A stretch of 59,957 nucleotides of DNA from the IMG/VR virus record IMGVR_UViG_3300025064_000001. One strand, 5' to 3'. The DNA is from a virus. The notes under the pieces are model-generated. The model made no database searches. It was not told where the DNA came from and saw only the letters and a program-made list of their open reading frames with translations. Made by a program: the position numbers and the translations under genes. Shown piece by piece: positions 2,825 to 44,106 of the stretch. The number at the start of each line of letters is the position of its first letter. The first letter of the stretch is position 1.

Positions 2825-3049
2825 ATTCCTTGTAGTTGATTGACGCAGTAATCCCTAGTCGCTAGGGCTGGGTTTCCAGATAGAGCGAACGTAGTCAGAC
2901 CAGCGGTGCTACGACATGCAAAAACACTGGCAGATGATGTGCGTTTCCTTACCTCCGTATCACCGCGCATGAGTCATCCGATTGATACCCGTAAAGTTGT
3001 GCTAAGGTATTTGGGCAGAAAGCCGCTAATTACAGTTAGCGGCTTTTTT
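2825..3049 (+). ncRNA. Candidate ~225-nt non-coding RNA (or structured int 3'UTR) bounded by a promoter and a terminator
   Basis: No ORF longer than 18 codons and no RBS. Several hairpins are present (CCCTAG-tcg-CTAGGG at 2853-2867). A C/U-rich anti-SD-like segment CCTTACCTCCGTA lies at 2947-2959. It ends at the 3021-3049 terminator. Confidence 0.45.
3021..3049 (+). terminator. Rho-independent terminator (9-bp stem AGCCGCTAA/TTAGCGGCT plus T-run)
   Basis: Read directly. The T-run is present only on the + strand. Confidence 0.8.
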
Positions 3050-3148
3050 ACGTCTGCTATCCTTATGGCTCCCGGCTGATATATAAGGGTTGCAGCGTTT
3101 TCGCTCTCTCATTCTTTCTCTCAAAACTCGCTCACTTCTCTCAAATTT

Positions 3149-3186
3149 TTGCGTTCATTTGCGTTCATGAACGCAAATGAACGCAA
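3149..3186. repeat. Perfect 38-bp palindrome built from four TTGCGTTCA units (two direct, two inverted)
   Basis: TTGCGTTCATTTGCGTTCA|TGAACGCAAATGAACGCAA. The reverse complement of the left 19 nt equals the right 19 nt. Confidence 0.95.
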
Positions 3187-3219
3187 TAAAAAACCCCATC
3201 TAAATTAATAGGTGGGGTT
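3185..3219 (-). terminator. Rho-independent terminator closing the minus-strand late/lysis operon
   Basis: On the - strand: AACCCCACC...GATGGGGTT followed by TTTTTTATT. It lies about 100 nt after the endolysin stop. Confidence 0.7.
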
Positions 3220-3316: not shown

Positions 3317-4189
3317 CTACAAATACCGCAAGCACTTCTCAAGCGCTTGGCAAAACTCAGTGTAACCATTCAAGCCACCGTTGACCGTCTCGCGAATAAT
3401 GCGAGCGCCGTAATTCATCTTATAGTCTTTGGTTTCAACACCTTTGGTATTCAGTGTGTTCAGCGTATAACCATTTGAGTAGGTGTTAATCTTTTCAGCT
3501 TTCTCATTGCAGCCATTAATACGCCAAAATTCCATAGCAGCGATGGCGGCATTCTCCATGTCTTCAATCAGCTTGGGATTGTCACCAAACTTGATGCTAG
3601 TCATGTTCTGCAAAATAAAATAGTTATCTCGGAAGGTATTGCCAGTCCAGCCGCCACCTCTATAATCCCAACCGTCATTGGTGTTAGGGCGATTGCCATA
3701 GCGACCGCCGTACAAGTAATTAGCCACAGCGACTTGCCCCTTTGCAAGCAATGCCCTGGCATCCGCTACAGACTTGATACGCGTAGGGAACACGGCTCGC
3801 AAGCGCTCAGGGCGATAATTAAAGCTCTCACGCTTGGCATTAAAGGCGCTTGACTCATGAATGCAGTTAGCAATAAAGGCACACATCTGCTTCTTGGTGA
3901 CAATGCCGTACTGTGGACCTAGTCTTAATAGCAGCTCTACCGCCGCTGGATTGACGCTTGAGTCTACTTTTTTAAGTGTCTCAATCGTTAGGTTATAAGG
4001 TCGCTTGCCAGCCGCGACTTCCACTTCTTTAACTGACAACTCTAATCGCTCGATAAGTTCGCCGCGAAACTTGTTATCAGTCATGGCCTGATTGGTGATA
4101 TCGACAATAAGTTGTGACATTTTGGTTGGCGCTAAATGCTCGCGCAGTTTTGCAAAAATAGCGGTATCGGTAACGGCTTGACTGGTCAT
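3317..4189 (-). CDS. Endolysin, glycoside hydrolase family 19 (chitinase-like) type
   Basis: Motifs FIANCIHESSAFNAKRE and YRGGGWTGNTFRDNY resemble the GH19 catalytic region. It is the last gene of the late block, after two membrane proteins. Confidence 0.75.
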   Translation of the reverse strand: MTSQAVTDTAIFAKLREHLAPTKMSQLIVDITNQAMTDNKFRGELIERLELSVKEVEVAAGKRPYNLTIETLKKVDSSVNPAAVELLLRLGPQYGIVTKKQMCAFIANCIHESSAFNAKRESFNYRPERLRAVFPTRIKSVADARALLAKGQVAVANYLYGGRYGNRPNTNDGWDYRGGGWTGNTFRDNYFILQNMTSIKFGDNPKLIEDMENAAIAAMEFWRINGCNEKAEKINTYSNGYTLNTLNTKGVETKDYKMNYGARIIRETVNGGLNGYTEFCQALEKCLRYL

Positions 4190-5132: not shown

Positions 5133-6068
5133 CTATAGCGTTAGCAATCTACGGATATCACTAGGTTTATGACCGTCCCATTCAGGTGCTCTATCTACCT
5201 CATTGACATCAAACATATTCCAATCATCTAAATGGTAGTGGTATGTGTAGTAACCATTAGGTGTTTTAACACCAACAATAAAGTAATCATCAAACATAGT
5301 ACCGTCTGCGTGTAGCTTAGACTTGAAAGCTACTTCTTTATTGTTGTTACAGATAATTGAAAATAAGACCATGCGATGATAGTAAAGCTCGTCAAACGTA
5401 TGGTAGCCGTCCGAAGTTTCTCCGGTTATAACAATATCTTTTGCGCAATCGCACAATGAGCCAGTTTCGTTTAGACGCTTAATTTCATCTTCGGTTAATT
5501 CGTGGTCGGGGTCTTGGGGTGCGGTGCATTTATTGACTTCGGCAGTTACTTTTTCTGAAAAGGCTAATGCTGTCTTCTTTACAGCGTCAGACTCCAACTT
5601 CTTACTAAGTGCGATTTTGATGCGTATTTCTAATATGTTGAAATACTCAGACATATAGTCGCGCTGATCTAGTAGTAACTCCCATTCTTTATCGTCAATA
5701 AAACTAGGTTGCGGTTTAGATAAGAAGTCGCACAGCTTATCTAGTTTTTCACGCAAGTCTGATTGCTCAAAAATCATTCGGGAAGCGTAGCTTGTCGGCT
5801 GTTTGACGCGATAGATATCATTGGCCAATAAATAACCTTCAAGTGGCCATAGCTGAGTGATTACTTTTTTAAGCGCGATTTCTTCGCCTAGCTCTTTATT
5901 GTAATTGGCAGGATCAACACAAGCTGATTCGCCAGTGACTTGAAAACCGCAAGGCAAAGTAACCATGCAATGAGTCAACGTGCCAGCAAGGTTGGTATAA
6001 GTAATAGTGCTTCGAGCCACTAAATGCTCAAGGTCTTCTTTGGTGACTTTATTAGGGAGGTCTGCCAT
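5133..6068 (-). CDS. Two-domain protein: N-terminal Gp49/Sf6-gp66-like domain plus an uncharacterised C-terminal domain (DGYHTFDELYYHR...EWDGH)
   Basis: The N-terminus TYTNLAGTLTHCMVTLPCGFQVTGESACVDPANYN resembles the N4 gp49-type family from memory. It is the first gene after late-motif copy 1. Confidence 0.6.
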   Translation of the reverse strand: MADLPNKVTKEDLEHLVARSTITYTNLAGTLTHCMVTLPCGFQVTGESACVDPANYNKELGEEIALKKVITQLWPLEGYLLANDIYRVKQPTSYASRMIFEQSDLREKLDKLCDFLSKPQPSFIDDKEWELLLDQRDYMSEYFNILEIRIKIALSKKLESDAVKKTALAFSEKVTAEVNKCTAPQDPDHELTEDEIKRLNETGSLCDCAKDIVITGETSDGYHTFDELYYHRMVLFSIICNNNKEVAFKSKLHADGTMFDDYFIVGVKTPNGYYTYHYHLDDWNMFDVNEVDRAPEWDGHKPSDIRRLLTL

Positions 6069-6145: not shown

Positions 6146-6161
6146 CGAACCTTATAGGGGT
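6146..6161 (-). promoter_or_regulatory. Late-unit element copy 1: ACCCCTATAAGGTTCG (minus-strand sense)
   Basis: 16 of 16 nt identical to the copies at 18165, 37577 and 44091. It lies 78 nt upstream of the 6068 start and 16 nt after a terminator. Confidence 0.6.
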
Positions 6162-6176: not shown

Positions 6177-6206
6177 CACAAAAAAGCCCACCGCTTAGGG
6201 TGAGCT
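6177..6206 (-). terminator. Rho-independent terminator after the giant gene
   Basis: Minus strand: AGCTCACCC-taagc-GGTGGGCT followed by TTTTTTGTG. Confidence 0.8.
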
Positions 6207-6241
6207 TTGAGTTATCGAGGAATCTTCGGTAACTGAATTAC

Positions 6242-9200
6242 TTAAAATCCGTCACGTACTTGTGAAAAATCTGACGCCATCTGAGCACGCATGGACTTAG
6301 GTGCCAGCTTGGTAACGCGCTCTGATTTTTCCATCTTCATCTCACGCACACGGCGAGCGATATCCGTAGGCTTGATAACGATTTTTTGATCAGGGTTTTT
6401 AGCATTCCAGTCTTTGACAGCGGCTTTTGCATCAGCAACTTTATTACTATTACCTTCGACCACGCCAGCCGCCCATAGCGCTCTGATATTTGAGGCGCGC
6501 AGACTATAAAAAGAAGTGGCTGTCTGACCAAGATAGTTAGCCTCTTGGATTTTAGATACTTTGAGTGGCTGGAATCCTGCAAACTTAAATGCTGCATCAA
6601 CGGGTGACACGTCAGTGACCTTGTAGCCCTTGGTATCTTTATAGATACCAGACGTACCCATATCGATACCCTTCACAGCATTACGCACAGCGGTTGGCGA
6701 GAACTCAAGCGCACCTTTTTTAAGACTGGTTGCATCAAGATTTGCCACGCCTTTTGCAATATCTCTTGTGCCGGTTGCGATACGTCCGGCAAAGTCACCT
6801 GCTGGACCTGCAATCTCTAGCACGTCACGAGTGTTATTGGTGCGCTCTTTAAAGATACCTGTACCTGGAATCAAGTTACCAAGACCTAAGCGACCTGATA
6901 CATCGGTCGGTGAGCCTGGCAATGTTGAAGCGCCTGACTCAAGGAAGTCGCCCAACATTTCACCAAACCACGCATCCAAGAAGTCTTGACGTGCTTTTTT
7001 CGATGATAGGTTATAACCCATAATCTGTCCGATACCGTCAATCAAGTCTTCCGCATCTTCCATAAATGGTAAACCGCCTGAACCTGATAGTAGGAACATG
7101 ACGCCAAGCATAATCATGGTTGCCTTGCGACCTTGCGCACGTTCAACAGATCCCTTCTCGCCTTGATTCCATAGTCTGTGCATCAGCTCAATGTAAGATA
7201 CGGTATAAGTCTTAAAGGTCATGAGCGTACCGCCAACAGCGCCGCGGCCCCAATTCATGCGACTGGCTTTGTTGTAGACAAATTGCGTCTCTTTAATGGA
7301 TTTGGTGGCAAAGTCTGCTGGATTATCCATGCCCTGCTCTTTTGCCAAGCGGTAAGCTGCCACAAAAGTCACGCGGCGGTTAATCTGCTCAGCACCACTA
7401 AATAAGGCGCCCCATGCTAGACTAACGCGAGATAAGGTATTACCTGCCAGCGCTCTGGCATCACCAACTTTCGTGCCATCACCAGCGCTTAATGGATTCT
7501 TACCGCTGGCTTGCTTGAGTAGGTTGTGAACCTCTTGCGGGCTAAGCGTACCGTCTGCTTCTGCTCGCTCAATAGCTGCCAACAAGTCAGGCTCAAAGTG
7601 GCTTCTGTCTTTATCCTTAAACGCCTTTGTCCAGTCGCTTGATGCCTTACCAAGTTGTGAGGCTGCCTTAACTGCGCCGCCGAACTGTGAAAGGTATGGG
7701 AACGATACGGCAATGGGCTGCGTGATGTTGACCACGGCTGACGCAATCGAACCACCAAGATACTGCGCGAACATCCAGCCGCGCATAAGCTGCGCTTCTT
7801 CTTGTGGGTTTTTAATGTACTCAGCAAGCTTAACGGCCGCATCTTTTAGCTGACCTTCACCTTTTGGGATATCAGTAATAGCGCGGTCAATGTTGCTCAT
7901 GTTTAAAGCAGCCGAGGTATGGCGAGCATTAGAATAGATAAAGCTTGCCAGCACACGCCCAACGTCTTCAGAATACCCTTTAATACCTTTACGGTGCATT
8001 AATCGTTTCATGGCGCTACGATTGTTTTTGGTGCGTTTTAGGTACTCTTGGAACGCTTCATCTGCCGCTTTATCGCCAGTTGCATCAAGCCCTAGCATCT
8101 CACCAAACAATTCAGCCGTTTCAGGTGTCACTCCAGCGAATAATTTAAACTCTTCGTTCGATAAAGTACCGCGACTGACGGTGTGTGTAGCAGGGTCGTC
8201 GTACAGCGCTTTCATTTCAGCTTCCATTTTGCGAGCTTCATAAGCAGATTCAAACATACCAAAGTATTCACGGTTGCCATCAGCGTCTACCACGTCAACC
8301 GTGTACTGGCCGAAACGTGATAGCGGCGCATAACCATCATCCATTAGTTTGTTGGTACGGAATTGCGACTCTTTGATATCTTTAAGGGTCTGCTTTAATG
8401 CCTTCTCTTTTCTTGGGTTGGCTTGTATCAGGCTATTGATATGCTGCTCGATATTAAAGACCGCTTCGCGTAACGTGCCAGCCTCCATGACTGCTGCTTC
8501 GATATCGTTAGCATCTTTACCCAAACGGCGTAGCATGTCTGAGCGCGTGAGACTATCAAGACTTTTATCAGTGGCGGATCTGAACTCGCGGTACAGCTCG
8601 ATTTGCTCATCTGATAAATCAAACTTGCTGCGTAGCTCGCTGTCTTTCCAGACAAGGCCAGCGTTGACTTCCTCGTCAATAATGCCATTAATAAAGCGAT
8701 TGGCTTGGATGTTGTTTAGCGTGGCAAGCTGTTGCAGCTGTGCTGGCGTGATACGGTTGGCATCTTTTAGCATCTGTAAGCGGTCTTGCTTTGAGGCGGC
8801 CATGACTTTTTTGCGCCAGTCTTCTATGAGCACTGCTTTACCATCAAGGTCGCGGCCCCATAGTAATGTACCTTCAAAAATCGGCTTGCTTAACGCCTCA
8901 TTATCTTTGGCACCGATAGCAGACTTGGTGATATCGCGTAGTGAATCAAGCTGCGGTAACAGTCTTGGCGCAAGCTCTGAGGCTTTGGCTGCATAGAATG
9001 ATACGTCATTGATAAACTTCTCAGTGTTCTCAAAGACGGGTTTAAAGTACGGGTTACGCTGTGCCAAGTTGTACATCGTGCCGATGGTCTTGTGCCACCA
9101 CGATAGTTTGCCGGGAGGCGCGGAGCTTGCCCAGTCGTAAAGTCGTGTCGCTGTTTCTTTAGCGATATTGCGTGGGTCGAACTGATCATTCATGCCAGCG

Positions 9201-12200
9201 GCGCGGCTGAAACGGATATCAGGGTTTGAGCCGTCAAACGTGCCTACGTTGTCAGTGGCAGATTTGATTTGATTATTATTGATAGCAATAATCGCATCAG
9301 TTTCTCTACCAAAAGAGCCTTCATCTACTTCAAGAACCACACCATCGATATCATTTTCAGCTAAATGGTCATCAATTAGTTTTTTAGCAGCGAGTGAGCT
9401 GGCTTGTTGGTTGGCTGTCCACTCGTCCAAGATATCCCTAGATTTTTTGAATAACTCTTTCGAGCTTTGCGAACGGTCGCCAGTCTCATACCTTCTTTTT
9501 AACTCAGCTTTAATACTGCTCTCAGCTTCATCTAATGCCTTGCTGTAAGTATCATCATTCTGTTTCATGCTTGCGACAATATCCGCATAGCCATCGATAT
9601 TATTTTCATAATACTTTTTAGCTGCCTGCCTATCTTTTAGCTCAAGCGGATTTTTTATATTAGTAAATAAAGGCATCTGGTTTAAATTCTCACCAATACC
9701 TATATCTCTATCGCTGCCCTTTACGAATATACCTGTTGGTGTTTCATTGTCATGCTTCCCAGCCTTGGCTTTCGTTTTATCAAAAGTTGTCCAAGTATTA
9801 TCTGTTTGGTGATAAGTTATTCTTGGCTCACCATTATCATCGACTATCTTAGACGCATTTTTTGGGTCGTTCTGCCAGTCACCAAACCACTGCTTAAAGG
9901 CTGGTGTTCTTGTTTGCACCCACTGGTTTTCGGTCAAGTTGGTTGGCTTGCCATTAGGCGCAGTCATCCATTGATCAGTATTCTCATACTGGTCGCGCAC
10001 GTCCTGCATCTGTTTATCAGGAATATTCGGGTCGCTAAACTGCGGCGCTGCATTGGCCACATTGTCTAGCGAGCCTTGCTTTTCAATCTCGTTTACCATG
10101 CGTTCAGCCAGTGACAAGATATCTTGCGAGTTAATGGCAATCGGTACGCCAAGCGTATTTTTAAGCCATGAGCGTATCGCCATCACCATGCGATTAATCA
10201 TGCCAGCAACTTTACCTTGCTTGGCTTGCTGGCGTGAGGTAAGTGTGATTAGGTACGGCAGATACTCATCGAGTGCGTCTTGCTCATTACGTGCGACTTT
10301 ATCCGCCATCGCTTTTGCTTGCATAGCTAATGGGTCGCCTGCTTTAACCAGGCTGTCAAAATCTCTCATCAGCGCGTCGTAGGCTTTCTTATCCATGAGC
10401 GTTTGCATACCGCCATGACCACCGAGCTCATGTAAGAAGGTCGGGATAATCATATCGTCAGATAGGTTGTCTGCAATCAAGGTTGCTTTGCCGTTGTGGT
10501 ATAGACCATCGACATCACTAGGGATAGTCAGCTTGCCGTCTTGCATAAAGTCGGACAGCACTTTGATATCAAGCTTGCCATCAGCCATGAGCTTAGCAAT
10601 GGTTTCTTTACCAAACTTATCGTTTAGTTTGCCAATGACTTGCTGGCGTGTGGTCTGCGTACTGCCAATCGCGCCAGCCTTCACTTTATCTATCGCTTTA
10701 TTTAACTGTCCAGCACGACTAAAAAGTGTTTTTCCGTTACCGTCTTCCGAAGCTTTACTGTCAAGAGTGGCAAATAAGTTATCAAACGCTTCTGCCACTG
10801 GCGCCATCTCACTCTGTAGTAAGTATGGGTATCTGTCCATATTACGAGGAAAGGCATTCTCTGGCGTGATGTTGGCTAAGAAGTCGCTGCGCGCGCCCTG
10901 CTTCTCTAACTTGTTAATCACATAGCCTTCAAACGCTCGCGCTGCACGCTCGATAATGCGTGACCAATAACCATCAGGCGCACCTTTATCGATGGTGACA
11001 GCTCGAGCTTTCATTGGTGATTCGTCTAGCGTCTCTACCAAGTTTGCAAAAGCCACTTCAACTTGTGGGCGCACACCTTCTTTATGATTAGGGTCGGGCA
11101 TAAAGTTTTCGGGTAAGTAGGCGCGGTTCTTATTCATCTCGTACAACTGCTTGCGTCGCATCTCTGTTATTGGGCGCATACGACTAGGATTGCCGTTCTG
11201 ATCTTTCATAATCAGCATTGGCTCGGGCTTATAGGTGATATAAGCATTCTCTTTGCTGGTCAAGCGATTAGGGTCATCGCGGAACGAGGTAAAGTGATTG
11301 TCTAACGCATGGAACCATTCATGAGCAAGCGAGCCTGCGCCTTGCGTTTTGGTTAGGTTGATGATGACTTGCGACGGCTCATAGTGCGCCATGGCGCGGC
11401 CTTTACCGCGAGCACCAAAGGACATAGCGAGCTTTCCGCCTAGACCAATTGCTTCTGGTGGGATATTAAGCACGCCTGCCAAGTCCATGAAGGCGTCGTA
11501 AGCATCATTCAGCATGTTCTGACGGTCTTTGCTGTTGGCGCCTTGCTTTACCCAGTTACCAAACTGACCGCCACGTAAGCCAAACGTGTTCATAAACTGT
11601 TCGGTCGTTACGTCTTGACCGCTGCGATGGTCGGGACCGATGCGCTCACGGTTGACATTCGAGCGCATGTCAGATTTTTTGACGTTTACGCGCTCTTTAT
11701 GTTGATCCCACAGCTCAGATAGCTCGCTGTTGTTTTCTTTTAGAAACGCTCTAGCAGCATCCCTGTCGTTAAATTCAATAAGCGGCGTCTTATCTTTGTC
11801 GCTGGCTTGTGTGATAAACCACGACTTAGCATCGCCGCGACCGCGACTATACAAGTCAAATTTCAATGCTTGCGTCTTGACCTCGCCACCCAGTAGATTA
11901 TTAACCTTATCGATAATCTCTGATATATCTCTTTGCTCAGTGTTAAAAGTATGCGTTCTCTTGTCGATGGTCACAGCAAAGCCAACGAAGGGAATGTAAT
12001 CGCCATTCTCGTTTCTTTTTTGATAGCCTATCTGCGGATCAACTTTATCAATGCGCGACCACTGCTCTTTATCTAACTGTGCCAATAGCTGTGCCTGATA
12101 ACCAATGTCTGCCACTGCTTCTATTTGGGTTAATTGACTGATAAACTCATTTGCTGGCATGTCGCTGCTAAGCATGTTCTGCATAATACCGCGAGTGCTT

Positions 12201-15200
12201 TTAACCTTATTCACCCAGCTATTAAGTCTATAGCCTTTGCGTGGTTTGGTTGGTATCGTGCTGCGCAAGGCGGTAGCAAGTGCTGCCATTTGCGTGTCTT
12301 CAATAGCGTCAATATCTTTCTTGGGCCATATCTTGCTCAGTGGTTGGCTTATGATATCGTCGTCTGTCATTTCTTTTTGATAGAACGACTGCATGTCTTT
12401 ACGCGCGCCTGTTATCTTTTCGCCAAAGTCTTCAATCTCTGCGACTGGTGCGGTAGGCGTGGTTGGCTTGTCTGCTTTTTTGGTAGCAGGCTTAGCGCTG
12501 CTTTCGGCTTGTTTGAGGATTGGCAGGAGGGAGCCGGTAGGTTTCTTTGTCCCTTTCTTACGAATCATATCGCCTTCACCATCGAGCCAGATAGATGCCT
12601 CACTAAATGGGTCGCTAGGGTTTTCTTTAGCGGCAATATAATGCAGCTCTCGAATATCTTGGCTGGCAAGCTCTTTGGCTTTCTTGCTGGCCGTTATAGA
12701 GTTTGCACCTCGGATGTGAACAACTCGGTCATGCTTGCGCACCGTGATTCCGTCTTCATTGATGCGGAACTCATTACCATTCACTTGTGTTTGCCAGTCA
12801 CCGGTAGGATTAGGGTTATTAGTCGACTCAATAACACTGGTAGAACCTTTAGGTTTATCTTGCTGCTCTTCTTGGAATTTTTTAGATAACTTCAAGAATG
12901 ACTCGGGGTTGTATTTCGCTTCATCACGTATAAAGTCACGCGCATTCACCCCTTGCGCCTCAAGCTTATCTTTATAAGCGTTGACCATTGCTGTGCCGTA
13001 CTGCTTGTATTCTGCTTGCGCCTGCTCTTTGATTGGCAACAAGCGCTCTGTCTCTGCCTCTGCCTTCTCAGTGTTCTTGGTTTTAACTTCATCAAGTTTT
13101 TTAGCGTCAATTTTTGCTTTATCTGCTTTATAACTATCAAGCTCACTATCAATGTTCTTTGTGCGATTAGGGATAGATAGCTCGCCATGATCAAGTTTAT
13201 TACTATCGTTAAAGCCGTACTTCTCTGCAAGCTTAGATTCAGGGGTTGCTTCGCTTTCCTGCGCTGCTTGCTGCTTAGCATAGCTTTTTGTGTTGTTAAT
13301 ACCTGCATCCACGGTTTGGTATTGCATGCCCTTATGCAATCCACGTTTACCGTTGACCGTTGCTTCTACTGTGACGCCTTTATCGTCCATGCTTTTTACT
13401 ACGGCATCATCAAAAACTCTGCCGCTAGACATAATTAAGCGACCAAGGTTTTGACCTTCTGATAAGTTTAACGCTGCCCTGTAGTCCGTCTCAGTATTTT
13501 TGGTGGTAGGCTTCTGCATTTCACGAACCATCGCTTTATCTGACAGCTCTCTTGGTGCTTTCTTAGGCGCTGGAATATTAACCGTAGGGTTTTCATCGGT
13601 TAGCTGCGTGGCTGTTTGAGCATTAGTAGGCGCTGGATCATTACTCAGAACATTAGGCGCGTCGGCTTCAAAGTCAGCAAGTAAGTCGGGTGCATTAACG
13701 CGATTGGTTGCATCAATACGTGCCTGCAAACGCGACCCCATCCTAGTTGCTGAGCGTGCATTGCTATAGAAATCTCGGACAATCTCTTTGGATTGTGGGC
13801 TAATACCCTCTCCAAACATATCTTCCATATTTAGATAGTCGTCAATATTAGCGCCACTCTCCACAAGATCAATATAGGTTTCAGCAGCAGTCTTTATATC
13901 TTCTGATAGAGTATCGGCTTCACGATTGCCTTCCTTAATAGATTGATTAATCTTGGTTATTTGTGGCGCTTTATCAACCAAGGTTTTAAGCACGTTCTTA
14001 GCGCTGGAATCAATATCTTCTGTCACTGCTTTGGTTAGCTTTGATGAGCCGTAAGCATTTTGAAGTAGTGCACCTGACACTCGGTTCTGCCCAGTCTGTG
14101 ACAACTCTCCATTAGATAGTACAAGCTCATTTACTTCATTTTTATCAAGCGAGCTGATGAAGGCTTGAGTAAATTTATAACTGCCTTTTAGGTTTAAACT
14201 ACCATTGCTATCAAGCTCTAGGAGGTCAGCGTTTGGCAATATCTTAGCGTCTGCTTTCGCACGTTCACTGCTACTCATAGCTGCGCCAGTCGGGGCATTA
14301 GCACGTAAGGCAAACTGCTCTCTATCCATATCGGAATTATTGCGTCGTACAAGGACTGGTTGCTGCATCTGATTGATAGCATTGGCATCAAGACCAAACT
14401 CTTCAGCACTTTTATTTACAAATTGACGATAGGCATCTCCCTTGCCAGACTCGTACATTCTACGGATAGCGATAGTACGACCATTGCCAGACTCAACTAG
14501 GTTGTCGTCACGCCCAACAATAGGACTACCAGCATTGACAGAGTTATCCTTACCTAGTAGTTCGGGGTTAAATTTTTTGACGATATCAAGCACTTGCGCT
14601 TGATATCCAGCATCCGCTCTATCGCGTGGCTGATATTGCTGCGGGTAATCAGGGTTTTCTACAAAGTTGTTGCTATGGCTAGATAAAAGCTCACTTGCAT
14701 CAACCACATCAAACTGTAGCGGTATTTTGTCACCTCTAGGGTTGTAGGCCACAGACTGCGCTTTAGCTTCATCAATAACGCGAGCTTTAGGGTCTATCTT
14801 TTTGGCGGTAGGTTCAGGTTTTTTTGGCAGCGCATCAATGGCTTTTTTAAGGCGTGCGCGTTCTGGTACTGACTTAGGGTCAGCTTCAATCGATTGCGAT
14901 AGCGCTTGATAAGTACCGTTGTCGATATCAGCAGTAGCTAGACTGGTGCGCATACTTTGCAGCCACTTACTACCTGTCGGCTGCTCTTGCGTTTCAACTT
15001 CAACCAAACCAGCCATGCGTGTCGCTGAATTCTCACTAGATTGCGCACTCGCCTGCTCAAAATCTGCCGCCACTGAACTCGCGCCACTATCTACAGCAAT
15101 AGCAGCGGCAGCACTTAGACTGCCTTTGTTCGGGTCAAGTCCCATCAGCTCAGACGGTTTTGGTGCTTCTGGTATTGGTGTTCTATCTAGAATTTCACCG

Positions 15201-16639
15201 CGAGCAATGCGCGCTCGGCGCTCGGCTGCGGCATCACGTTCTTGGCTTAATCTGGTATTAATATCATCACGGCCATAAACCTGACCGTCTTGACTGGCGG
15301 TAAAATCCGTACCGTCTGGTGCTGGCAAGCGTGGGTCGCTGCCGTACTTATCATAGCCTTCTGGTACTTGGGTGACATCATTGATATCGCTCATGCCAGC
15401 GTCACGGGCAGCTCTTGCCTGCGCTTGCTGCTGCGCTAGATACTCGTTGTACTCAGACTCAGTAAAGACCGTACCATCTGCCGCGGCGCTAAACTGACCG
15501 CCAAGCTCGCTATTATAAGTAAGCTCTGGGTCAGGCGTAAGATTGCGCATGTTAGCAGCATTAGGACCTTGACCACGGTTAAAGTAATCAGGATTGGCAT
15601 CTTCAATCCAGTTGGGATTATTCGGGTCGCTGATAGCACCTTGATAGCCAAGCTGATTGCCACCTGGTCTATTGGGACTTGGCAATCCAAGCCTAGGTGC
15701 TTCTTGACCCATGTCTTCTGTTGGGGTGATATCATCACGCGCTGGCGTGCGATTGCGAGTGATACCGCCAACCACGCCGCCCATAGCAGCACCAGATAGC
15801 AAGCCAAGTACGGCGGCATCGGTCACGCCCTCATCAAGTGGACGGCCAAGCGCTTCGTTTTGCAGGATGGTTTCAGATACCGATTGTGGTAGTTCCTCAA
15901 GCAAGCCTTCGGTTAAGGCGCCCTCACCGATACGGCGAACCATACCTTTGTTGCCATTAACAGTACGGCTGCCACTTGCCAGCAAGGTATCAACATCACC
16001 GATACCAAGTTTCTGCGCAATTTTACCACCGGCAAAACCAAAGCCTGCGGTTGTGGCACCAGTAGCGGCGGCCAGACCAGCTTGTTTGCCGGTTAATAAA
16101 CCATCGTCTGTTTGTTGACGTATCTGTTCAGCGGCAAGACCAGCGCCGACCGCGCCTTCACCCAATGCACCAGCGGCAACCGGCGATAAGCCTTTAGCTG
16201 CCGCGCCAAGTCCACGGCCAACGACGCCACCAGCCAGCATAGGCGCAAGGGACTCGACCACGGTGTTACTAATCATCGATGGATTTTTACGCGCATAATT
16301 TAGCTTGCCACCAAAACCTTCAGTCTCTTGGAACTCGCGCATCTGCTCTTGGCTTTGCTCAGACTTCCAGCCACCGATAACCTCCTTAGCCTCACCCGGG
16401 CGAAAGCCTAAACCACCACCTTCGTTCTCCAAAAACTTACCGACACGGCCGCCAGTCGGGATATCCAATAAACCGACTGCCAATTCGGGCACAGCAACGG
16501 CACTCGATAAGCCTGACAGTAATGTGTCACCAATTAAGCCTGCCGCGCCTTTGTTTCTCGCTGGCGCGTTTGCCATAGCTGCATCGATAGCATCTTTACG
16601 GCTATATGGTTTTTTTTCATCGTTAGGGTTCATGCTCAT
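6242..16639 (-). CDS. Giant (3,465 aa) polyvalent virion/ejection protein. It carries ParB-like, zincin metallopeptidase (HEWFH), ART-like and PLxRFG modules plus a C-terminal membrane segment.
   Basis: One uninterrupted ORF. Motifs verified against the DNA: SGNGRT (14474-14491), HEWFH (11309-11323), HELGGH (10415-10432), ITYHQT (9803-9820), PLSRFG (8309-8326). Confidence 0.85.
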   Translation of the reverse strand: MSMNPNDEKKPYSRKDAIDAAMANAPARNKGAAGLIGDTLLSGLSSAVAVPELAVGLLDIPTGGRVGKFLENEGGGLGFRPGEAKEVIGGWKSEQSQEQMREFQETEGFGGKLNYARKNPSMISNTVVESLAPMLAGGVVGRGLGAAAKGLSPVAAGALGEGAVGAGLAAEQIRQQTDDGLLTGKQAGLAAATGATTAGFGFAGGKIAQKLGIGDVDTLLASGSRTVNGNKGMVRRIGEGALTEGLLEELPQSVSETILQNEALGRPLDEGVTDAAVLGLLSGAAMGGVVGGITRNRTPARDDITPTEDMGQEAPRLGLPSPNRPGGNQLGYQGAISDPNNPNWIEDANPDYFNRGQGPNAANMRNLTPDPELTYNSELGGQFSAAADGTVFTESEYNEYLAQQQAQARAARDAGMSDINDVTQVPEGYDKYGSDPRLPAPDGTDFTASQDGQVYGRDDINTRLSQERDAAAERRARIARGEILDRTPIPEAPKPSELMGLDPNKGSLSAAAAIAVDSGASSVAADFEQASAQSSENSATRMAGLVEVETQEQPTGSKWLQSMRTSLATADIDNGTYQALSQSIEADPKSVPERARLKKAIDALPKKPEPTAKKIDPKARVIDEAKAQSVAYNPRGDKIPLQFDVVDASELLSSHSNNFVENPDYPQQYQPRDRADAGYQAQVLDIVKKFNPELLGKDNSVNAGSPIVGRDDNLVESGNGRTIAIRRMYESGKGDAYRQFVNKSAEEFGLDANAINQMQQPVLVRRNNSDMDREQFALRANAPTGAAMSSSERAKADAKILPNADLLELDSNGSLNLKGSYKFTQAFISSLDKNEVNELVLSNGELSQTGQNRVSGALLQNAYGSSKLTKAVTEDIDSSAKNVLKTLVDKAPQITKINQSIKEGNREADTLSEDIKTAAETYIDLVESGANIDDYLNMEDMFGEGISPQSKEIVRDFYSNARSATRMGSRLQARIDATNRVNAPDLLADFEADAPNVLSNDPAPTNAQTATQLTDENPTVNIPAPKKAPRELSDKAMVREMQKPTTKNTETDYRAALNLSEGQNLGRLIMSSGRVFDDAVVKSMDDKGVTVEATVNGKRGLHKGMQYQTVDAGINNTKSYAKQQAAQESEATPESKLAEKYGFNDSNKLDHGELSIPNRTKNIDSELDSYKADKAKIDAKKLDEVKTKNTEKAEAETERLLPIKEQAQAEYKQYGTAMVNAYKDKLEAQGVNARDFIRDEAKYNPESFLKLSKKFQEEQQDKPKGSTSVIESTNNPNPTGDWQTQVNGNEFRINEDGITVRKHDRVVHIRGANSITASKKAKELASQDIRELHYIAAKENPSDPFSEASIWLDGEGDMIRKKGTKKPTGSLLPILKQAESSAKPATKKADKPTTPTAPVAEIEDFGEKITGARKDMQSFYQKEMTDDDIISQPLSKIWPKKDIDAIEDTQMAALATALRSTIPTKPRKGYRLNSWVNKVKSTRGIMQNMLSSDMPANEFISQLTQIEAVADIGYQAQLLAQLDKEQWSRIDKVDPQIGYQKRNENGDYIPFVGFAVTIDKRTHTFNTEQRDISEIIDKVNNLLGGEVKTQALKFDLYSRGRGDAKSWFITQASDKDKTPLIEFNDRDAARAFLKENNSELSELWDQHKERVNVKKSDMRSNVNRERIGPDHRSGQDVTTEQFMNTFGLRGGQFGNWVKQGANSKDRQNMLNDAYDAFMDLAGVLNIPPEAIGLGGKLAMSFGARGKGRAMAHYEPSQVIINLTKTQGAGSLAHEWFHALDNHFTSFRDDPNRLTSKENAYITYKPEPMLIMKDQNGNPSRMRPITEMRRKQLYEMNKNRAYLPENFMPDPNHKEGVRPQVEVAFANLVETLDESPMKARAVTIDKGAPDGYWSRIIERAARAFEGYVINKLEKQGARSDFLANITPENAFPRNMDRYPYLLQSEMAPVAEAFDNLFATLDSKASEDGNGKTLFSRAGQLNKAIDKVKAGAIGSTQTTRQQVIGKLNDKFGKETIAKLMADGKLDIKVLSDFMQDGKLTIPSDVDGLYHNGKATLIADNLSDDMIIPTFLHELGGHGGMQTLMDKKAYDALMRDFDSLVKAGDPLAMQAKAMADKVARNEQDALDEYLPYLITLTSRQQAKQGKVAGMINRMVMAIRSWLKNTLGVPIAINSQDILSLAERMVNEIEKQGSLDNVANAAPQFSDPNIPDKQMQDVRDQYENTDQWMTAPNGKPTNLTENQWVQTRTPAFKQWFGDWQNDPKNASKIVDDNGEPRITYHQTDNTWTTFDKTKAKAGKHDNETPTGIFVKGSDRDIGIGENLNQMPLFTNIKNPLELKDRQAAKKYYENNIDGYADIVASMKQNDDTYSKALDEAESSIKAELKRRYETGDRSQSSKELFKKSRDILDEWTANQQASSLAAKKLIDDHLAENDIDGVVLEVDEGSFGRETDAIIAINNNQIKSATDNVGTFDGSNPDIRFSRAAGMNDQFDPRNIAKETATRLYDWASSAPPGKLSWWHKTIGTMYNLAQRNPYFKPVFENTEKFINDVSFYAAKASELAPRLLPQLDSLRDITKSAIGAKDNEALSKPIFEGTLLWGRDLDGKAVLIEDWRKKVMAASKQDRLQMLKDANRITPAQLQQLATLNNIQANRFINGIIDEEVNAGLVWKDSELRSKFDLSDEQIELYREFRSATDKSLDSLTRSDMLRRLGKDANDIEAAVMEAGTLREAVFNIEQHINSLIQANPRKEKALKQTLKDIKESQFRTNKLMDDGYAPLSRFGQYTVDVVDADGNREYFGMFESAYEARKMEAEMKALYDDPATHTVSRGTLSNEEFKLFAGVTPETAELFGEMLGLDATGDKAADEAFQEYLKRTKNNRSAMKRLMHRKGIKGYSEDVGRVLASFIYSNARHTSAALNMSNIDRAITDIPKGEGQLKDAAVKLAEYIKNPQEEAQLMRGWMFAQYLGGSIASAVVNITQPIAVSFPYLSQFGGAVKAASQLGKASSDWTKAFKDKDRSHFEPDLLAAIERAEADGTLSPQEVHNLLKQASGKNPLSAGDGTKVGDARALAGNTLSRVSLAWGALFSGAEQINRRVTFVAAYRLAKEQGMDNPADFATKSIKETQFVYNKASRMNWGRGAVGGTLMTFKTYTVSYIELMHRLWNQGEKGSVERAQGRKATMIMLGVMFLLSGSGGLPFMEDAEDLIDGIGQIMGYNLSSKKARQDFLDAWFGEMLGDFLESGASTLPGSPTDVSGRLGLGNLIPGTGIFKERTNNTRDVLEIAGPAGDFAGRIATGTRDIAKGVANLDATSLKKGALEFSPTAVRNAVKGIDMGTSGIYKDTKGYKVTDVSPVDAAFKFAGFQPLKVSKIQEANYLGQTATSFYSLRASNIRALWAAGVVEGNSNKVADAKAAVKDWNAKNPDQKIVIKPTDIARRVREMKMEKSERVTKLAPKSMRAQMASDFSQVRDGF

Positions 16640-16645
16640 ATTCGA

Positions 16646-18112
16646 CTACCTCAAGGCTTCAAGTTGTTTGCGACGCTCATCTTTACTCAGACTTCTATCA
16701 TTGATAATGGCCTGCGCTCTTGGGTCAGACTCATAATCGATAGGCTCTGCTGGCAGGGCGCGAGTCTCACCCGTGTTTCTGTTCAGCAAAATGTCAGGGT
16801 TTTTAGTCGAAGTTAAGCCGTCAGCGGATAAGGTTTCACCGCCGCCAATGTTGGTCCAATACTCTTTATCGGACTTATCATTGGTGCCTTTGAGCGCTTG
16901 AATCTGCGCGGCCACAGCGGTTCTGTCTTCATCACTTTGCGCCGTATCATATTTTTCATACAAGGCGTTAAGCTGCTTTGGCGCATAGTTGGCAACATCA
17001 GAATTACTCTGCTCGATATCTAAGCGGCGAGACGCCAAGCTGTTTGCTTGCTGCTGCTGCTCAGCGGTCTGTTGGAACTTGCCAGCATCAAAACCAAGCT
17101 GGCTATTAAAGCGGCTGTTTGAATTGGCTTCACCAAGGGCGGCGCGTTCGTTGGCACCCTCTTGCGACATTTGTGTTTGTGCGAGCTGACTTGCGGCACT
17201 GAGCTGGGCGCCGTAGCGGTCATTCTTATACTTGTCATCAGCACCAACAATGCCAGCGCGTAGCTCCATTTGCTTGGCGGTAAGCTGCCCGTTTTGCGAA
17301 CCCTTATAAGCGGTACTGGCATCACGTAGCAATGCTTCGCGTTCTTGGCGCTCGCTCCAGCTTCGGGTCGGGGCATTTGGCATACGAAAGCCATTGCCAC
17401 CGCCACTGCGTTGAATGGTTTGCGGATTGTTTACTGGGTCAAAACCGATACGTGGCGGCGCGGTTTGTTGTGGCTGCTCCACATAACTGCCCGGCACCGC
17501 TTCTTCAGGTATCGCCTGCTTGCCAGCATAAACCGATGGGTAGTCTTTTGGATTCCATTTATCCTCGCCGCGACTTGGCTTGCCAACAGGAAAATTAAGA
17601 TTAATTTTGGCATCGGTTGTCGGTTTTTTGACGCCACCGCCAAGCTCAGTTAGGCGCTCTACTGGCTGGTTTGCGGCAGCGGCTTGTGCTGGCATTAACC
17701 CTAGCGATGGATTGATGGCGCTTGTCCTTGCTGGTGCTGGCGTGTTTTGGCGTAAGCCTTGGGCGGCTTGTGTTTGCTGGCTGGCTGGTAGTTTGAGTAT
17801 GTCTTGAATGCCGCGTCTGGTATCTTGGACGGCAGCATTACGACTGGCGGTTTGATTGGTTTGCGCTTGGCGCTGCTGCGTCAGTGCTTGCTCGCGTTCT
17901 TGGGCGGCGATGTTTGTGGCAACTTGTGGCGAGCGTTGCACCGGTGCTTGCTGTGGCATCTGCTTGGCTTGTGTGGCAAGTGCGCCTGCACCCATAAATC
18001 CTGCTGGTGCGTTACTAGCGCCTAGACCTAAGTTTGCGCGGCCACGTTCAAACGCCTCACGTCTTTTCTTTTTCTCTTCTTCGCTGCGTGTATCAATCGC
18101 CATAACCATCAC
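16646..18112 (-). CDS. Q/A-rich low-complexity protein, internal virion (ejection) protein candidate
   Basis: Composition and position directly upstream of the giant gene. First gene after late-motif copy 2. Confidence 0.6.
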   Translation of the reverse strand: MMVMAIDTRSEEEKKKRREAFERGRANLGLGASNAPAGFMGAGALATQAKQMPQQAPVQRSPQVATNIAAQEREQALTQQRQAQTNQTASRNAAVQDTRRGIQDILKLPASQQTQAAQGLRQNTPAPARTSAINPSLGLMPAQAAAANQPVERLTELGGGVKKPTTDAKINLNFPVGKPSRGEDKWNPKDYPSVYAGKQAIPEEAVPGSYVEQPQQTAPPRIGFDPVNNPQTIQRSGGGNGFRMPNAPTRSWSERQEREALLRDASTAYKGSQNGQLTAKQMELRAGIVGADDKYKNDRYGAQLSAASQLAQTQMSQEGANERAALGEANSNSRFNSQLGFDAGKFQQTAEQQQQANSLASRRLDIEQSNSDVANYAPKQLNALYEKYDTAQSDEDRTAVAAQIQALKGTNDKSDKEYWTNIGGGETLSADGLTSTKNPDILLNRNTGETRALPAEPIDYESDPRAQAIINDRSLSKDERRKQLEALR

Positions 18113-18164: not shown

Positions 18165-18180
18165 CGAACCTTATAGGGGT
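18165..18180 (-). promoter_or_regulatory. Late-unit element copy 2: ACCCCTATAAGGTTCG
   Basis: Exact copy, 53 nt upstream of the 18112 start. On the + strand it lies in the 5' leader of the moron. Confidence 0.6.
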
Positions 18181-18187
18181 AGGCGCC

Positions 18188-18472
18188 ATGAGCGTATTGG
18201 TAATGTATATTTTAGGCGTAGCGATGTTTGCTGCGGTGCTTGGTATGTTCTGGTATTTCATTCGTAGCATCTCTATCATGGGCCGTCATAATATCCTCAT
18301 AGGGATAGCCGGTCTTATTTTGGCACCTATCTCGCAAGTGGTTTTTTATGCCATCAAAGATGATGAGCTTGATGATAAAGACAAAAAAGCCTTTATTGGT
18401 TTGGGCGTTTCTTTATTGGTCATCGCTATGATCAGTGCCATCTCTGCGATATACCCACCACCACCGATGTAA
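18188..18472 (+). CDS. Moron: 94-aa three-TM membrane protein transcribed against the virion operon
   Basis: It is the only + strand gene between 3.3 and 53 kb. It has its own promoter and a perfect bidirectional terminator. Confidence 0.8.
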   Translation: MSVLVMYILGVAMFAAVLGMFWYFIRSISIMGRHNILIGIAGLILAPISQVVFYAIKDDELDDKDKKAFIGLGVSLLVIAMISAISAIYPPPPM

Positions 18473-18483
18473 ATGATAGGCGC

Positions 18484-18522
18484 AAAAAAATACCCGTCAC
18501 GACCGTGACGGGTATTTGTTTT
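18484..18522. terminator. Bidirectional rho-independent terminator (10-bp perfect stem TACCCGTCAC/GTGACGGGTA with A-run and T-run flanks)
   Basis: Read directly: AAAAAAATACCCGTCACgaccGTGACGGGTATTTGTTTT. Confidence 0.85.
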
Positions 18523-37576: not shown

Positions 37577-37592
37577 CGAACCTTATAGGGGT
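37577..37592 (-). promoter_or_regulatory. Late-unit element copy 3: ACCCCTATAAGGTTCG, with TTGGCT 17 nt upstream of TATAAG
   Basis: Exact copy, 100 nt upstream of the 37477 start and about 30 nt after a terminator. Confidence 0.6.
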
Positions 37593-43342: not shown

Positions 43343-44035
43343 TTACGCATCGTCATCACCACTCACGCCAATACTATTACTGGCAGGCGCGTCCTCATAT
43401 TCGGGATCAGCTTTCACTACACCAAAAGCATTGCCGTTATTATTCGCAATGCTGTGTAGTAGTGTGGTGAGGGCATCGACTGGCGAGCTATCAACGTCAT
43501 CGAGGCCGTAGGCTTGACGCTCTAATGTCACAAGCTTGGTCATGGTGTCTGCCAAGTCTTTCATGACACGCACATGATTAGATAAAGACGTGACGCGCTC
43601 GTATGCTTCAAGCGCGCTTTCATCAATCGCATTGGATTTGAGTGCTGCTATAAACAAGTCTTCTAAGCGTGCGCGGTTGTCAGTGCCAATCTGCGCCTTT
43701 AAGTCATCAAGCAAGGTCATGGCAATGCTGCGAGCATCACCAATGTCTTGACGGTGTGATAAGCGCACGTTGGCTGTTAGCTGTGCGTTTTCTTCAATCG
43801 TTTGGTCATCACTTGCCAGCTTTTTAACCGCACGCTCTTGCACCAATGCGTTTGCTCGCTCTTTGATGCGGTGTTTTAAGTCACGTTTCCAAGCATGTTT
43901 TTTAGCGCGGCGTGTGATAGTCGTTGCATGAATGCCAAAATCTCGCGCAAGTTGTGCGTTTGTACGCAAGTCTGCACGATAAAGTCGCTCGACTTCTTCC
44001 CAATCACACTCAGGCTTGTCGTTTTTTTTACTCAT
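43343..44035 (-). CDS. terS: Terminase small subunit (HTH N-terminus)
   Basis: WEEVERLYRADLRTNAQLARDFGIHATTITRRAKKHAWKRD. ATG at 44035 with GGAG 7 nt upstream. First gene after late-motif copy 4. Confidence 0.65.
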   Translation of the reverse strand: MSKKNDKPECDWEEVERLYRADLRTNAQLARDFGIHATTITRRAKKHAWKRDLKHRIKERANALVQERAVKKLASDDQTIEENAQLTANVRLSHRQDIGDARSIAMTLLDDLKAQIGTDNRARLEDLFIAALKSNAIDESALEAYERVTSLSNHVRVMKDLADTMTKLVTLERQAYGLDDVDSSPVDALTTLLHSIANNNGNAFGVVKADPEYEDAPASNSIGVSGDDDA

Positions 44036-44090
44036 ATCATGCTCCAAACACCTTTAATAGCTTGATGTTAGAGCCTGTACGTGAAAAGTG

Positions 44091-44106
44091 CGAACCTTAT
44101 AGGGGT
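44091..44106 (-). promoter_or_regulatory. Late-unit element copy 4: ACCCCTATAAGGTTCG, with TTGCAC 18 nt upstream of TATAAG
   Basis: Exact copy, 56 nt upstream of the TerS start and about 80 nt after a terminator. Confidence 0.6.

Follow-up and report, generated by a model that had tools for sequence, protein, structure and literature searches.

The 59,957-nt stretch of viral DNA analysed here (IMG/VR virus record IMGVR_UViG_3300025064_000001; hereafter the window, meaning the whole of this stretch) carries a giant gene at positions 6242-16639 of the minus strand, a single ATG-initiated open reading frame (ORF) of 10,398 nt for a protein of 3,465 amino acids (aa). This gene probably encodes a polyvalent internal virion protein (IVP) of a temperate podophage whose late genes are ordered as in the F116/H66 group (genus Hollowayvirus). 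Homology, synteny and the literature show that its placement equals the slot of H66 gp60, of N4 gp50 and of the Stx-phage giants VT2-Sakai orf71 and phi24B gp47, the last two being presumed counterparts of each other. As judged from its sequence, the window protein certainly belongs to the H66 gp60 family. Polyvalent proteins have been described as multi-domain polypeptides that commonly, though not always, include a metallopeptidase hub, that can carry ADP-ribosyltransferases (ARTs) with an H-Y-D active site, and whose genes lie among the late genes of phages or in conjugation loci (Iyer et al. 2017; PMC5512222). The window protein unites at least two effector-type domains in one polypeptide above Pfam cut-offs (ddrB-ParB, LPD5, LPD1 and ART-PolyVal), and its gene lies downstream of the terminase, portal, major capsid and tail genes and upstream of the endolysin gene. 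Pfam matches were judged against gathering thresholds, and the segments that remained unmatched (aa 1-640, 760-1580 and 1950-2270) were rescanned at E ≤ 10. The original prediction had proposed an uninterrupted ORF spanning 17% of the window (17.3% by our count), with polyvalent-protein architecture and in the ejection-protein slot. The ORF was found as described, the architecture is borne out by four Pfam domains of polyvalent type together with a PLxRFG domain, and the slot by gene-for-gene synteny with H66, whose gp60 is marked as a virion protein, as well as by the literature on phi24B gp47 and on the IVP-D family discussed below.

The synteny with H66 extends to the organization of the transcription units. 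H66 gp60 and F116 p60, both of Hollowayvirus, occupy the same slot as the window gene: after the tail/IVP block, behind one co-transcribed upstream gene, between flanking terminators and with the lysis cassette next. The late genes of Pseudomonas phage H66 run from the portal, major capsid and 'head closure Hc3' homologue through to gp58, followed by a terminator, gp59 and gp60, a further terminator, and then the holin, lysozyme and spanin. The RefSeq note on gp60 reads 'verified by mass spectrometry as part of the virion'. This protein, annotated as 'PLxRFG domain-containing protein', is 56% identical to the window protein in the N-terminal module and 55% identical in the C-terminal ~950 aa. 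It differs in its cargo, which comprises a SAM-methyltransferase site, LPD23 and LPD3 in place of the ParB, LPD5-zincin-LPD1 and ART of the window protein.

Conserved ends and cysteine exclusion

Comparison by blastp separates the constant parts of the protein, all encoded on the minus strand, from the variable ones. The window protein has just two regions in common with H66 gp60 (3,787 aa) and the giant protein of Pseudomonas phage 8P (5,145 aa), namely aa ~30-325 (54-56% identity) and aa 2509-3462 (55%). In the giant of Pseudoalteromonas phage Y7 (4,675 aa), the shared part also takes in the ParB unit and the whole sequence beyond aa 1868, and in ORF9 of Shewanella phage Y11 (3,372 aa) it covers all but a linker at aa ~1030-1382.

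The conserved C-terminal module (aa 2509-3462, ~950 aa; 6254-9115) is an IVP-D-like scaffold that is 55% identical over 956 aa to H66 gp60 (E = 0) and to the 8P giant, and 75% identical to that of Y7. Within it, the PLxRFG domain (aa 2769-3450; 6290-8335) matches NCBIfam NF032893 'tail-700' at E 8e-204, with 678.9 bits against a cut-off of 100 and over model positions 2-680 of 681. The motif YAPLSRFGQY at aa 2770-2779 (PLSRFG, nt 8309-8326), recognized in the original prediction as the PLxRFG signature, thus belongs to a full-length match. Three hydrophobic segments had also been proposed at aa ~2955-3192. A Kyte-Doolittle scan of the C-terminal region recovered two of these, a moderate one at aa 2954-2986 and a strong one at aa 3168-3196, and no third. 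Nor does a membrane-insertion-like C-terminus constitute a notable fusion, as had been suggested, since PLxRFG and the hydrophobic helices form one conserved ~950-aa family module.

An AlphaFold (AF2) model of aa 2750-3465 is almost entirely helical (pLDDT 78, pTM 0.67). A fold search of BFVD with this model, in which predicted structures are compared with predicted structures, gave 43 matches at E < 1e-3, largely to C-terminal pieces of other giant phage proteins. Those at probability 1.0 include the 'Internal virion protein D' of Roseobacter phage CRP-4 (E 7e-8) and proteins of Vibrio phage ICP2 and Salinivibrio phage CW02. The extended T7 gp16 (IVP-D) family has been defined to include H66 gp60 and F116 p60, along with gene 00062 of Vibrio phage douglas 12A4, VT2-Sakai orf71 and the C-terminal domain of N4 gp50, a link for which joined intermediate profiles were needed (Hardies et al. 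2016; PMC4819975). The same authors concluded that IVPs 'variably host ... domains destined for the cytoplasm'.

The opposite end of the protein is likewise conserved. The N-terminal module (aa ~25-310; 15710-16567) is Gly/Ala-rich and carries small-xxx-small (glycine-zipper-like) repeats. The share of Gly and Ala is 33% in aa 1-200, as against 11-18% when aa 601-2800 are taken in blocks of 200 residues. Two stretches, aa 30-66 and 270-296, are hydrophobic. The Gly/Ala-rich, hydrophobic N-terminus of the original prediction is therefore real, but it is no feature peculiar to this protein. Identity to the corresponding ends of the Y7, 8P, H66 and F116 giants is 52-60%, and an exhaustive HMMER search with aa 1-330 returned 1,808 cluster representatives at E ≤ 1e-3 (843 at E ≤ 1e-30). 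Among the 150 of these 1,808 representatives that were listed, the match lies near the N-terminus (starting at residues 1-239) in proteins of up to 5,677 aa. No Pfam model matches this module, even in the scan of aa 1-640 to E ≤ 10. The listed representatives include 103 giants of at least 2,000 aa, and PLxRFG is present in 66 of them, where it ends a median of 2.5 residues from the C-terminus.

A further property sets these proteins apart in composition. The giant protein has no Cys in 3,465 aa, where ~22 would be expected from a mean of 0.64% in 25 other ORFs of the window. The same holds for Y11 ORF9 (0 in 3,372 aa) and the Y7 giant (0 in 4,675), while single or paired residues occur in H66 gp60 (1 in 3,787), the 8P giant (2 in 5,145) and VT2-Sakai orf71 (2 in 2,806). 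The T7 and N4 proteins compared are alike in this respect, with no Cys in N4 gp50 (3,500 aa) and gp51 (644 aa) or in T7 gp15 (747 aa) and gp16 (1,318 aa). Of the 103 listed metagenomic giants of at least 2,000 aa, 95 are free of Cys, and the residue accounts for a fraction of 4e-5 across the set. In the window phage, its absence extends to certain other virion proteins. We infer that its absence marks proteins that have to pass unfolded through the tail channel and encounter the oxidising periplasm. Being common to the T7 and N4 proteins named above, it may serve as a simple compositional marker for ejected proteins in uncharacterised phages.

These observations bear on the proposal that the product is not a virion protein at all, being either a late cytoplasmic multi-enzyme or a structural protein akin to a tail fibre or tape measure. 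The varied GenBank labels of its relatives ('methyltransferase', 'structural protein', 'putative internal virion polymerase') lend this proposal some colour. However, both H66 gp60 and phi24B gp47 have been detected in virions by mass spectrometry, and near-total exclusion of Cys would be unexplained in a cytoplasmic enzyme. The tape-measure or tail-fibre variant was rejected outright, given that profile searches of the window protein found no fibre, receptor-binding or tape-measure families and that the structural module of the phage is of podovirus type. A non-virion role is accordingly considered extremely improbable.

Exchangeable cargo domains

Between its conserved ends, the window protein carries a series of effector-type domains. 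The original prediction had staked itself on profile or structure matches to the ParB, zincin, ART or PLxRFG families. Those to ParB, ART and PLxRFG were found above cut-offs, and the motif coordinates it quoted were exact for both protein and DNA. The first of these domains is a ddrB-like ParB/Srx domain (aa 635-767; 14339-14737), which matches PF18763 at E 8.3e-33 with 113.5 bits against a cut-off of 27.6. It contains the sequence GSPIVGRDDNLVESGNGRTIAIRR at aa 704-727, whose SGNGRT portion (nt 14474-14491) had drawn attention to a ParB/Srx-like block here. The Arg of the GNGRT motif would be the catalytic Arg of the ParB/Srx pocket. The domain is followed by a DdrB-like extension (aa 768-1029; 13553-14338) that is conserved with Y11 and Y7 and resembles DdrB of phage P1. 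A tblastn comparison with P1 ddrB gave 29% identity (E 3e-13), with aa 635-970 being DdrB-like, and the PHROG matches to the DdrB-like region are phrog_5143 (aa 634-1186), phrog_2299 and phrog_14693. Beyond it lies a variable linker rich in Lys and Glu (aa ~1030-1382; 12494-13552), which forms the gap between two blastp blocks against Y11 and is not kept even in this nearest phage orthologue. In the Pfam scan, no family matched aa 1-634 or aa 1030-1560. Matches to Laminin_II, Gag_p6, FmrO and others, obtained for the unmatched segments at E ≤ 10, were rejected as being at chance level. Sequence searches of the PDB with the whole protein, with the ART and ParB regions and with the zincin profile also returned nothing useful.

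The second unit (aa 1567-1961; 10757-11941) consists of LPD5 (aa 1567-1685, E 4.7e-21), a putative zincin core and LPD1 (aa 1884-1961, E 5.8e-13). FGLRGGQFGNW, which the original prediction had quoted without coordinates, lies at aa 1686-1696, and HEWFHALD at aa 1773-1780 (HEWFH, aa 1773-1777, nt 11309-11323). In an alignment of 51 LPD5/LPD1 homologues, H1773, E1774, H1777 and D1780 (HEWxHxxD) are invariant and FGxRGxxFGNW is nearly so. LPD5, the HExxH core and LPD1 nearly always occur together, including as stand-alone proteins of 340-510 aa, and the zincin unit is present in 31 of the 103 listed giants. A partial match of aa 1666-1785 to NCBIfam CLCA_X (E 8e-35) was also found, a family that we take to be one of zincins. 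The AF2 model of aa 1560-2100 has a pLDDT of 83, and the top of its list of weak PDB fold matches is dominated by zincins (vibriolysin, LasB, thermolysin, Wss1, anthrax lethal factor and selecase). Together, the invariant residues, the CLCA_X match and this list suggest that the core between LPD5 and LPD1 is probably a zincin. A longer segment containing the unit, aa 1401-2092, is 30% identical to VT2-Sakai orf71.

Downstream of this unit lies a segment (aa ~1975-2240; 9920-10717) that retains 76% identity in Y11 and 65% in Y7, although it has no Pfam match in the scan to E ≤ 10. Within it, HELGGH (aa 2070-2075; nt 10415-10432) is kept in both Y11 and Y7. The original prediction was right about its position and its non-canonical form, but the motif is no oddity of the window protein. 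It takes the family form HExxGHxGL, the first His of which is invariant in one 14-member alignment (A4) and nearly so in a second (A5). Because HExxGHxGL is kept in diverse family members, aa ~1975-2240 are treated as a further conserved module. The module shows weak similarity (E 1e-3) to a segment of VT2-Sakai orf71 that bears HEIIHH. The region had also been considered as a MuF_C domain of the phi24B gp47 type, an assignment that was rejected; the MuF_C of orf71 lies at aa 1763-1852, downstream of HEIIHH (~aa 1520-1585).

The last cargo domain is an ART-PolyVal ADP-ribosyltransferase-like domain (aa 2267-2468; 9206-9841 including its tail), in agreement with the ART-like module first proposed. 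It matches PF18760 at E 1.9e-10, with 42.1 bits against a cut-off of 31.2 and over all of model positions 1-140 of 140. FKQWFGDW precedes it at aa 2248-2255, ITYHQT lies at aa 2274-2279 and NQIKSATDNVGTFDGSNPDIRFS at aa 2456-2478; the conserved tail QIKSATDNVGTFDGSNPDIRFS runs past the domain to aa 2478. Among homologues, H2277 of 'TYHQT' ('YH'), the Asp of 'DGVVLE' ('DGVV') and the tail QIKSATxNxGxFDxxNPDIRFS are conserved.

A short sequence of the form FSR(A/S/T/M)G was noticed at domain boundaries of the window protein, at aa 1973-1977 (nt ~10709-10723), after LPD1, and at aa 2477-2481 (nt ~9197-9211), just ahead of the C-terminal module. This recurrence at boundaries is seen in all five phage giants (window, Y11, Y7, H66 and 8P), and the sequence is possibly the signature of a linker or processing site. 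The idea that FSR(A/S/T)G marks boundaries or cleavage sites universally was rejected, as F[ST]R[ASTGM][GAS] occurs in only 31 of the 103 metagenomic giants. In 34 of the 66 giants that carry PLxRFG, an F[ST]R lies no more than 150 aa from where the C-terminal module starts.

The cargo is exchanged among relatives. Besides that of H66 gp60, the giant of 8P carries C5 and Eco57I-type methylases, an SNF2 helicase and LPD23, and that of Y7 carries ParB, an Eco57I methylase, a helicase and an ART, while Y11 ORF9 carries the same four domains as the window protein (ParB, LPD5, LPD1 and ART). In 14 full-length family members taken together, 19 Pfam families were found. These include ART (5 members), the helicase domains ResIII (5) and SNF2 (4) and inorganic pyrophosphatase (4), as well as LPD39, ParB, Eco57I and N6 methylases, PBECR5, RadC and MuF_C. 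The nearest listed representative, with an N-terminal module 83% identical to that of the window protein, places a PBECR5 nuclease between its ParB and ART domains and gave no Pfam match to LPD5 or LPD1. Because PBECR5 replaces LPD5/LPD1 at this level of N-terminal identity, cargo cassettes are concluded to be exchanged even between close relatives.

Several results weigh against the reading of the gene as encoding a polyvalent IVP with working cargo. The presence of the window protein in the virion, its processing and its catalysis are predictions, and its delivery into the cell with the DNA is supported indirectly, by the mass-spectrometric detection of relatives in virions. For the zincin first proposed from HEWFH, the invariance of the motif and the partial CLCA_X match stand in favour; however, no Pfam peptidase model matches the region and the fold matches reach only E ≥ 0.1 (the best, to Wss1, at probability 0.72), which is below significance. 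HELGGH is not a canonical HExxH because its two His are spaced by five residues. At the presumed strand-2 site of the ART, the window protein has 'GIFVKG' and homologues have 'xFF[ST]', such that Phe appears to stand in place of the expected Tyr in the window ART and in most aligned homologues. As for the C-terminal module, a PDB fold search with the PLxRFG model found nothing below E 0.5, and its top matches (ABC-transporter and other helical membrane proteins, probability ≤ 0.13) were treated as noise. Alignment of the PLxRFG profile with the T7 gp16 sequence by hhalign was weak (E 0.003, probability 10%), pairing aa 3108-3246 with gp16 residues 1073-1196, including GAVGGTLMTFKTYTV with GALGKMVMQFKSFTI and a hydrophobic helix. 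Against a 17-sequence profile of the gp16 C-terminus, the match (E 0.028) fell elsewhere than that to the single sequence. Direct profile similarity to T7 gp16 is thus not significant, and the corresponding comparison with the N4 gp50 C-terminus gave no match. Because these direct tests were not significant, the IVP-D assignment rests on orthology to H66 gp60, on the literature and on the predicted-fold matches.

Some of these points could be taken to mean that the protein is mainly a structural component of the ejectosome or core, in which the enzyme-like domains persist as dead relics, bulk or spacers. The apparent Phe at ART strand 2, the non-canonical HELGGH and the want of a peptidase match in Pfam would all fit such a protein, as would the large low-complexity linker stretches. 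Against it, HExxHxxD is invariant across 51 divergent homologues, and ParB and ART match far above their Pfam thresholds. Moreover, the cargo of relatives is replaced by other classes of enzyme (nucleases, helicases, methylases and pyrophosphatases) and is not decaying, which argues for selection on activity. The relic explanation is thus regarded as very unlikely.

A second alternative retains the activities and dispenses with the conduit. By this account, the protein is anti-restriction cargo packaged in the head like the Dar proteins of P1, with ends that are conserved only for packaging or targeting. The resemblance of aa 635-970 to P1 DdrB invites the comparison, as do the methylase and helicase sets typical of DarB in relatives annotated 'DarB-like antirestriction', and the lack of a significant direct match to T7 gp16 is consistent with it. 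Yet conservation within the family is highest in the C-terminal module, which ends within ~3 residues of the C-terminus in 66 of the 103 listed giants, and it has hydrophobic helices and predicted-fold matches to annotated IVP-D proteins. In addition, no other IVP-D candidate was identified in the block, and Hardies et al. (PMC4819975) give this role to H66 gp60. Head-packaged cargo of the Dar type is therefore judged unlikely, if less so than dead relics, and a polyvalent IVP remains the preferred reading.

Late-gene setting

The late block of the window runs on the minus strand from the small terminase (43343-44047) through the large terminase, the portal and the capsid protein, and then the tail and other virion proteins. 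The family of this capsid protein is named the 'N4-gp56 family' in the paper on Y11 (PMC10846135). The giant ORF lies at the distal end of the block, its position having been correctly described as following two low-complexity proteins: an 895-aa protein with Pro-rich and coiled-coil repeats and then a 488-aa Gln/Ala-rich protein, both of which lack Cys. On its other side lie a 311-aa gene and then an endolysin homologue (3317-4189, minus strand). The 488-aa gene (16646-18112, minus strand) is the positional equivalent of H66 gp59, is presumed to encode an IVP and ends 6 nt short of the giant ORF. An intrinsic terminator with a 13-bp stem and T-run (18488-18517, minus strand) separates the 895-aa gene from the 488-aa gene and ends the tail/IVP block. 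A second, a hairpin with a T-run (6183-6208, minus strand), lies 34 nt past the stop codon of the giant ORF. With terminators before (18517-18488) and after (6208-6183) the pair, the 488-aa and giant genes form one transcription unit, as the original prediction had held.

A 16-mer, ACCCCTATAAGGTTCG, is present in exactly four invariant copies in the window (44091-44105, 37577-37591, 18165-18179 and 6146-6160), all of them on the minus strand and intergenic, against a chance expectation of 0.09. The copies stand at the heads of late-gene blocks, preceding in turn the small terminase, the gene before the major capsid gene, the unit of the 488-aa and giant genes (18165-18179, where the late-block motif reads (A)CCCCTATAAGGTTCG), and the 311-aa gene with the lysis genes. 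The 16-mer is thus a candidate late promoter or regulator site. No copy was found in the sequences of the relatives compared, and the 16-mer is therefore taken as specific to the window phage.

Between the tail-block terminator and the late motif of the giant unit lies a 94-aa ORF on the opposite strand (18188-18472, plus strand). Its product has two or three hydrophobic helices and a weak match to DUF2569, and looks like a small membrane protein of the moron type; the same gene is also called on contigs from the European Nucleotide Archive (ENA). The 311-aa protein encoded directly downstream of the giant ORF (5133-6068, minus strand) has three domains, namely Phage_gp49_66 (the N4 Gp49 / Sf6 gene 66 family), a crAss001_48-related domain and WDGH (E 2e-42). 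A Gp49-family gene adjoins the giant gene in N4 (gp49), in Pseudoalteromonas phage Y7 and in the window, and this adjacency appears to be conserved.

The remainder of the window carries an integrase (1537-2793, plus strand), a CI-like repressor (53149-53856, plus strand) and an anti-repressor homologue (50395-51144, minus strand), which show the phage to be temperate, like F116 and H66. A search for tRNA genes in the window found none. The giant protein recurs, letter for letter, on ~59.97-kb contigs of several ENA metagenome assemblies. The position and orientation of the gene vary among these contigs, which would fit a complete phage genome that is circularly permuted or circular. The nearest named match is a protein fragment from a Psychrobacter sp. 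assembly, at 98% identity, to judge from which the host is probably Psychrobacter.

Proposed mechanism and comparison with known systems

As a polyvalent IVP, the protein would be packaged in the capsid in a few copies and, at infection, threaded largely unfolded through the portal and tail. Its complete lack of Cys would suit a protein that has to traverse the oxidising periplasm. A trans-envelope conduit would be built or anchored, in the manner of T7 gp16, with the help of the C-terminal module and perhaps also of the N-terminal one, while the cargo domains would reach the cytoplasm before or along with the DNA. Once inside, the ParB-like domain (predicted to bind or hydrolyse NTP or to act as a nuclease) and the ADP-ribosyltransferase might act on host defence or transcription factors; such roles have been proposed for ParB-type and ART families (Iyer et al. 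2017; PMC5512222). The zincin would probably cut the polyprotein into working units. Related phages swap cargo as cassettes while both ends stay constant. A bolder version of this scheme holds that the N-terminal and PLxRFG modules, together with Cys exclusion, make up a translocation chassis by which podophages thread exchangeable cargo of 2,000-4,500 aa through the tail and into the cytoplasm, where the zincin and/or HExxGH module then frees it at the FSR(A/S/T)G boundaries. This version is doubtful. If it were true, the chassis family would be a natural modular protein-delivery system, with cargo cassettes swapped between close relatives.

Few components of phage virions are as poorly understood as the giant polyvalent proteins, which probably meet the host before any other phage protein does. 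To our knowledge, no PLxRFG-type giant protein has been studied biochemically, and the term 'PLxRFG' is itself rare in the literature searched. The family is large, with at least 1,808 clusters containing its N-terminal module; neither end matched Pfam, and the C-terminal model matched no solved structure. The N-terminal module, the HExxGH module, the near-absolute exclusion of Cys and the very recent exchange of cassettes between close relatives all appear to be under-described. In place of the GenBank labels carried by relatives, which include 'methyltransferase', 'DarB-like' and 'putative internal virion polymerase', the annotation suggested by the sequence is that of an IVP-D-type scaffold with predicted ParB, zincin and ART cargo. 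The accompanying map of constant and exchangeable parts could be of use in engineering or in forecasting anti-defence repertoires.

The window protein is nonetheless a member of an established class and not a new system, since the class is covered by Iyer et al. (2017), Hardies et al. (2016) and the preprint on phi24B, and its domain set already exists in Y11 ORF9. That protein (phage vB_SbaS_Y11; WIF21962.1; OQ927986.1, 9735-19853) has ddrB-ParB, LPD5, LPD1 and ART-PolyVal in the order of the window protein, with 56% identity over window aa 22-1027, 66% over aa 1383-3463 and syntenic neighbours. The claim that the domain set of the window protein is particular thus did not survive the comparison, the same four Pfam domains recurring in the same order at 56-66% identity over most of its length. 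Y11 ORF9 differs in that the linker is not kept and in a long insertion within its ART domain. It is annotated in GenBank, and has been described in publication, only as a methyltransferase (PMC10846135). A Pfam scan of ORF9 (E ≤ 0.01) found only ddrB-ParB, LPD5, LPD1 and ART-PolyVal, which leaves that label unsupported; it probably spread from relatives of the F116/H66 type that bear a methyltransferase site.

The term 'PLxRFG' is absent from the description of polyvalent proteins by Iyer et al. (2017; PMC5512222), which describes neither PLxRFG nor the N-terminal module. With P1 DdrB the window protein shares the ParB domain and its extension. P1, however, is a myovirus, and its Dar proteins are separate polypeptides packaged in the head. 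The N6-adenine methyltransferase and helicase of the DarB type were not found in the window protein, although they are present in its Y7 and 8P relatives. A further putative polyvalent protein, of 2,198 aa, is required for plating of coliphage PTXU04 (PMC11879866), and to judge from its length it may belong to phrog_5143.

The giants of the Stx phages (VT2-Sakai orf71, 2,806 aa; phi24B gp47, 2,811 aa) offer a more distant parallel. The LPD5-zincin-LPD1 unit and the segment that follows it are common to orf71 and the window protein, and both genes lie in the late region downstream of the tail genes. In contrast, orf71 carries MuF_C and LPD38 and not ParB, ART or PLxRFG, and blastp found no similarity between the two proteins in the N- or C-terminal modules. 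Mass spectrometry detected phi24B gp47 in virions, whereas the cryo-EM map shows no trace of it, and it has been proposed to be an encapsidated ejection protein (bioRxiv 10.64898/2026.04.10.717836).

The ejected proteins of T7 and N4 resemble the window protein in position and character. T7 gp16 is a helical, Cys-free, ejected core protein encoded by the last gene of the IVP block. It differs in its length of 1,318 aa and in carrying a transglycosylase ('internal virion protein with endolysin domain'), with no enzymes directed to the cytoplasm. The virion RNA polymerase (vRNAP) of N4, gp50, contains four vRNAP Pfam domains (PF21769, PF21867, PF21894 and PF21624), none of which was found in the window protein by the same search, and blastp of the whole window protein against gp50 gave nothing below E 0.19. 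Membership of the N4-like vRNAPs was rejected on these grounds, only the slot and the logic being held in common. Like the window protein, gp50, of 3,500 aa, is a giant, Cys-free protein encoded distally in the virion block beside a Gp49-family gene. Its C-terminal domain is reported to be an IVP-D homologue with the enzyme embedded in it (PMC4819975), and gp50 provides the model for an injected giant protein with cytoplasmic cargo.

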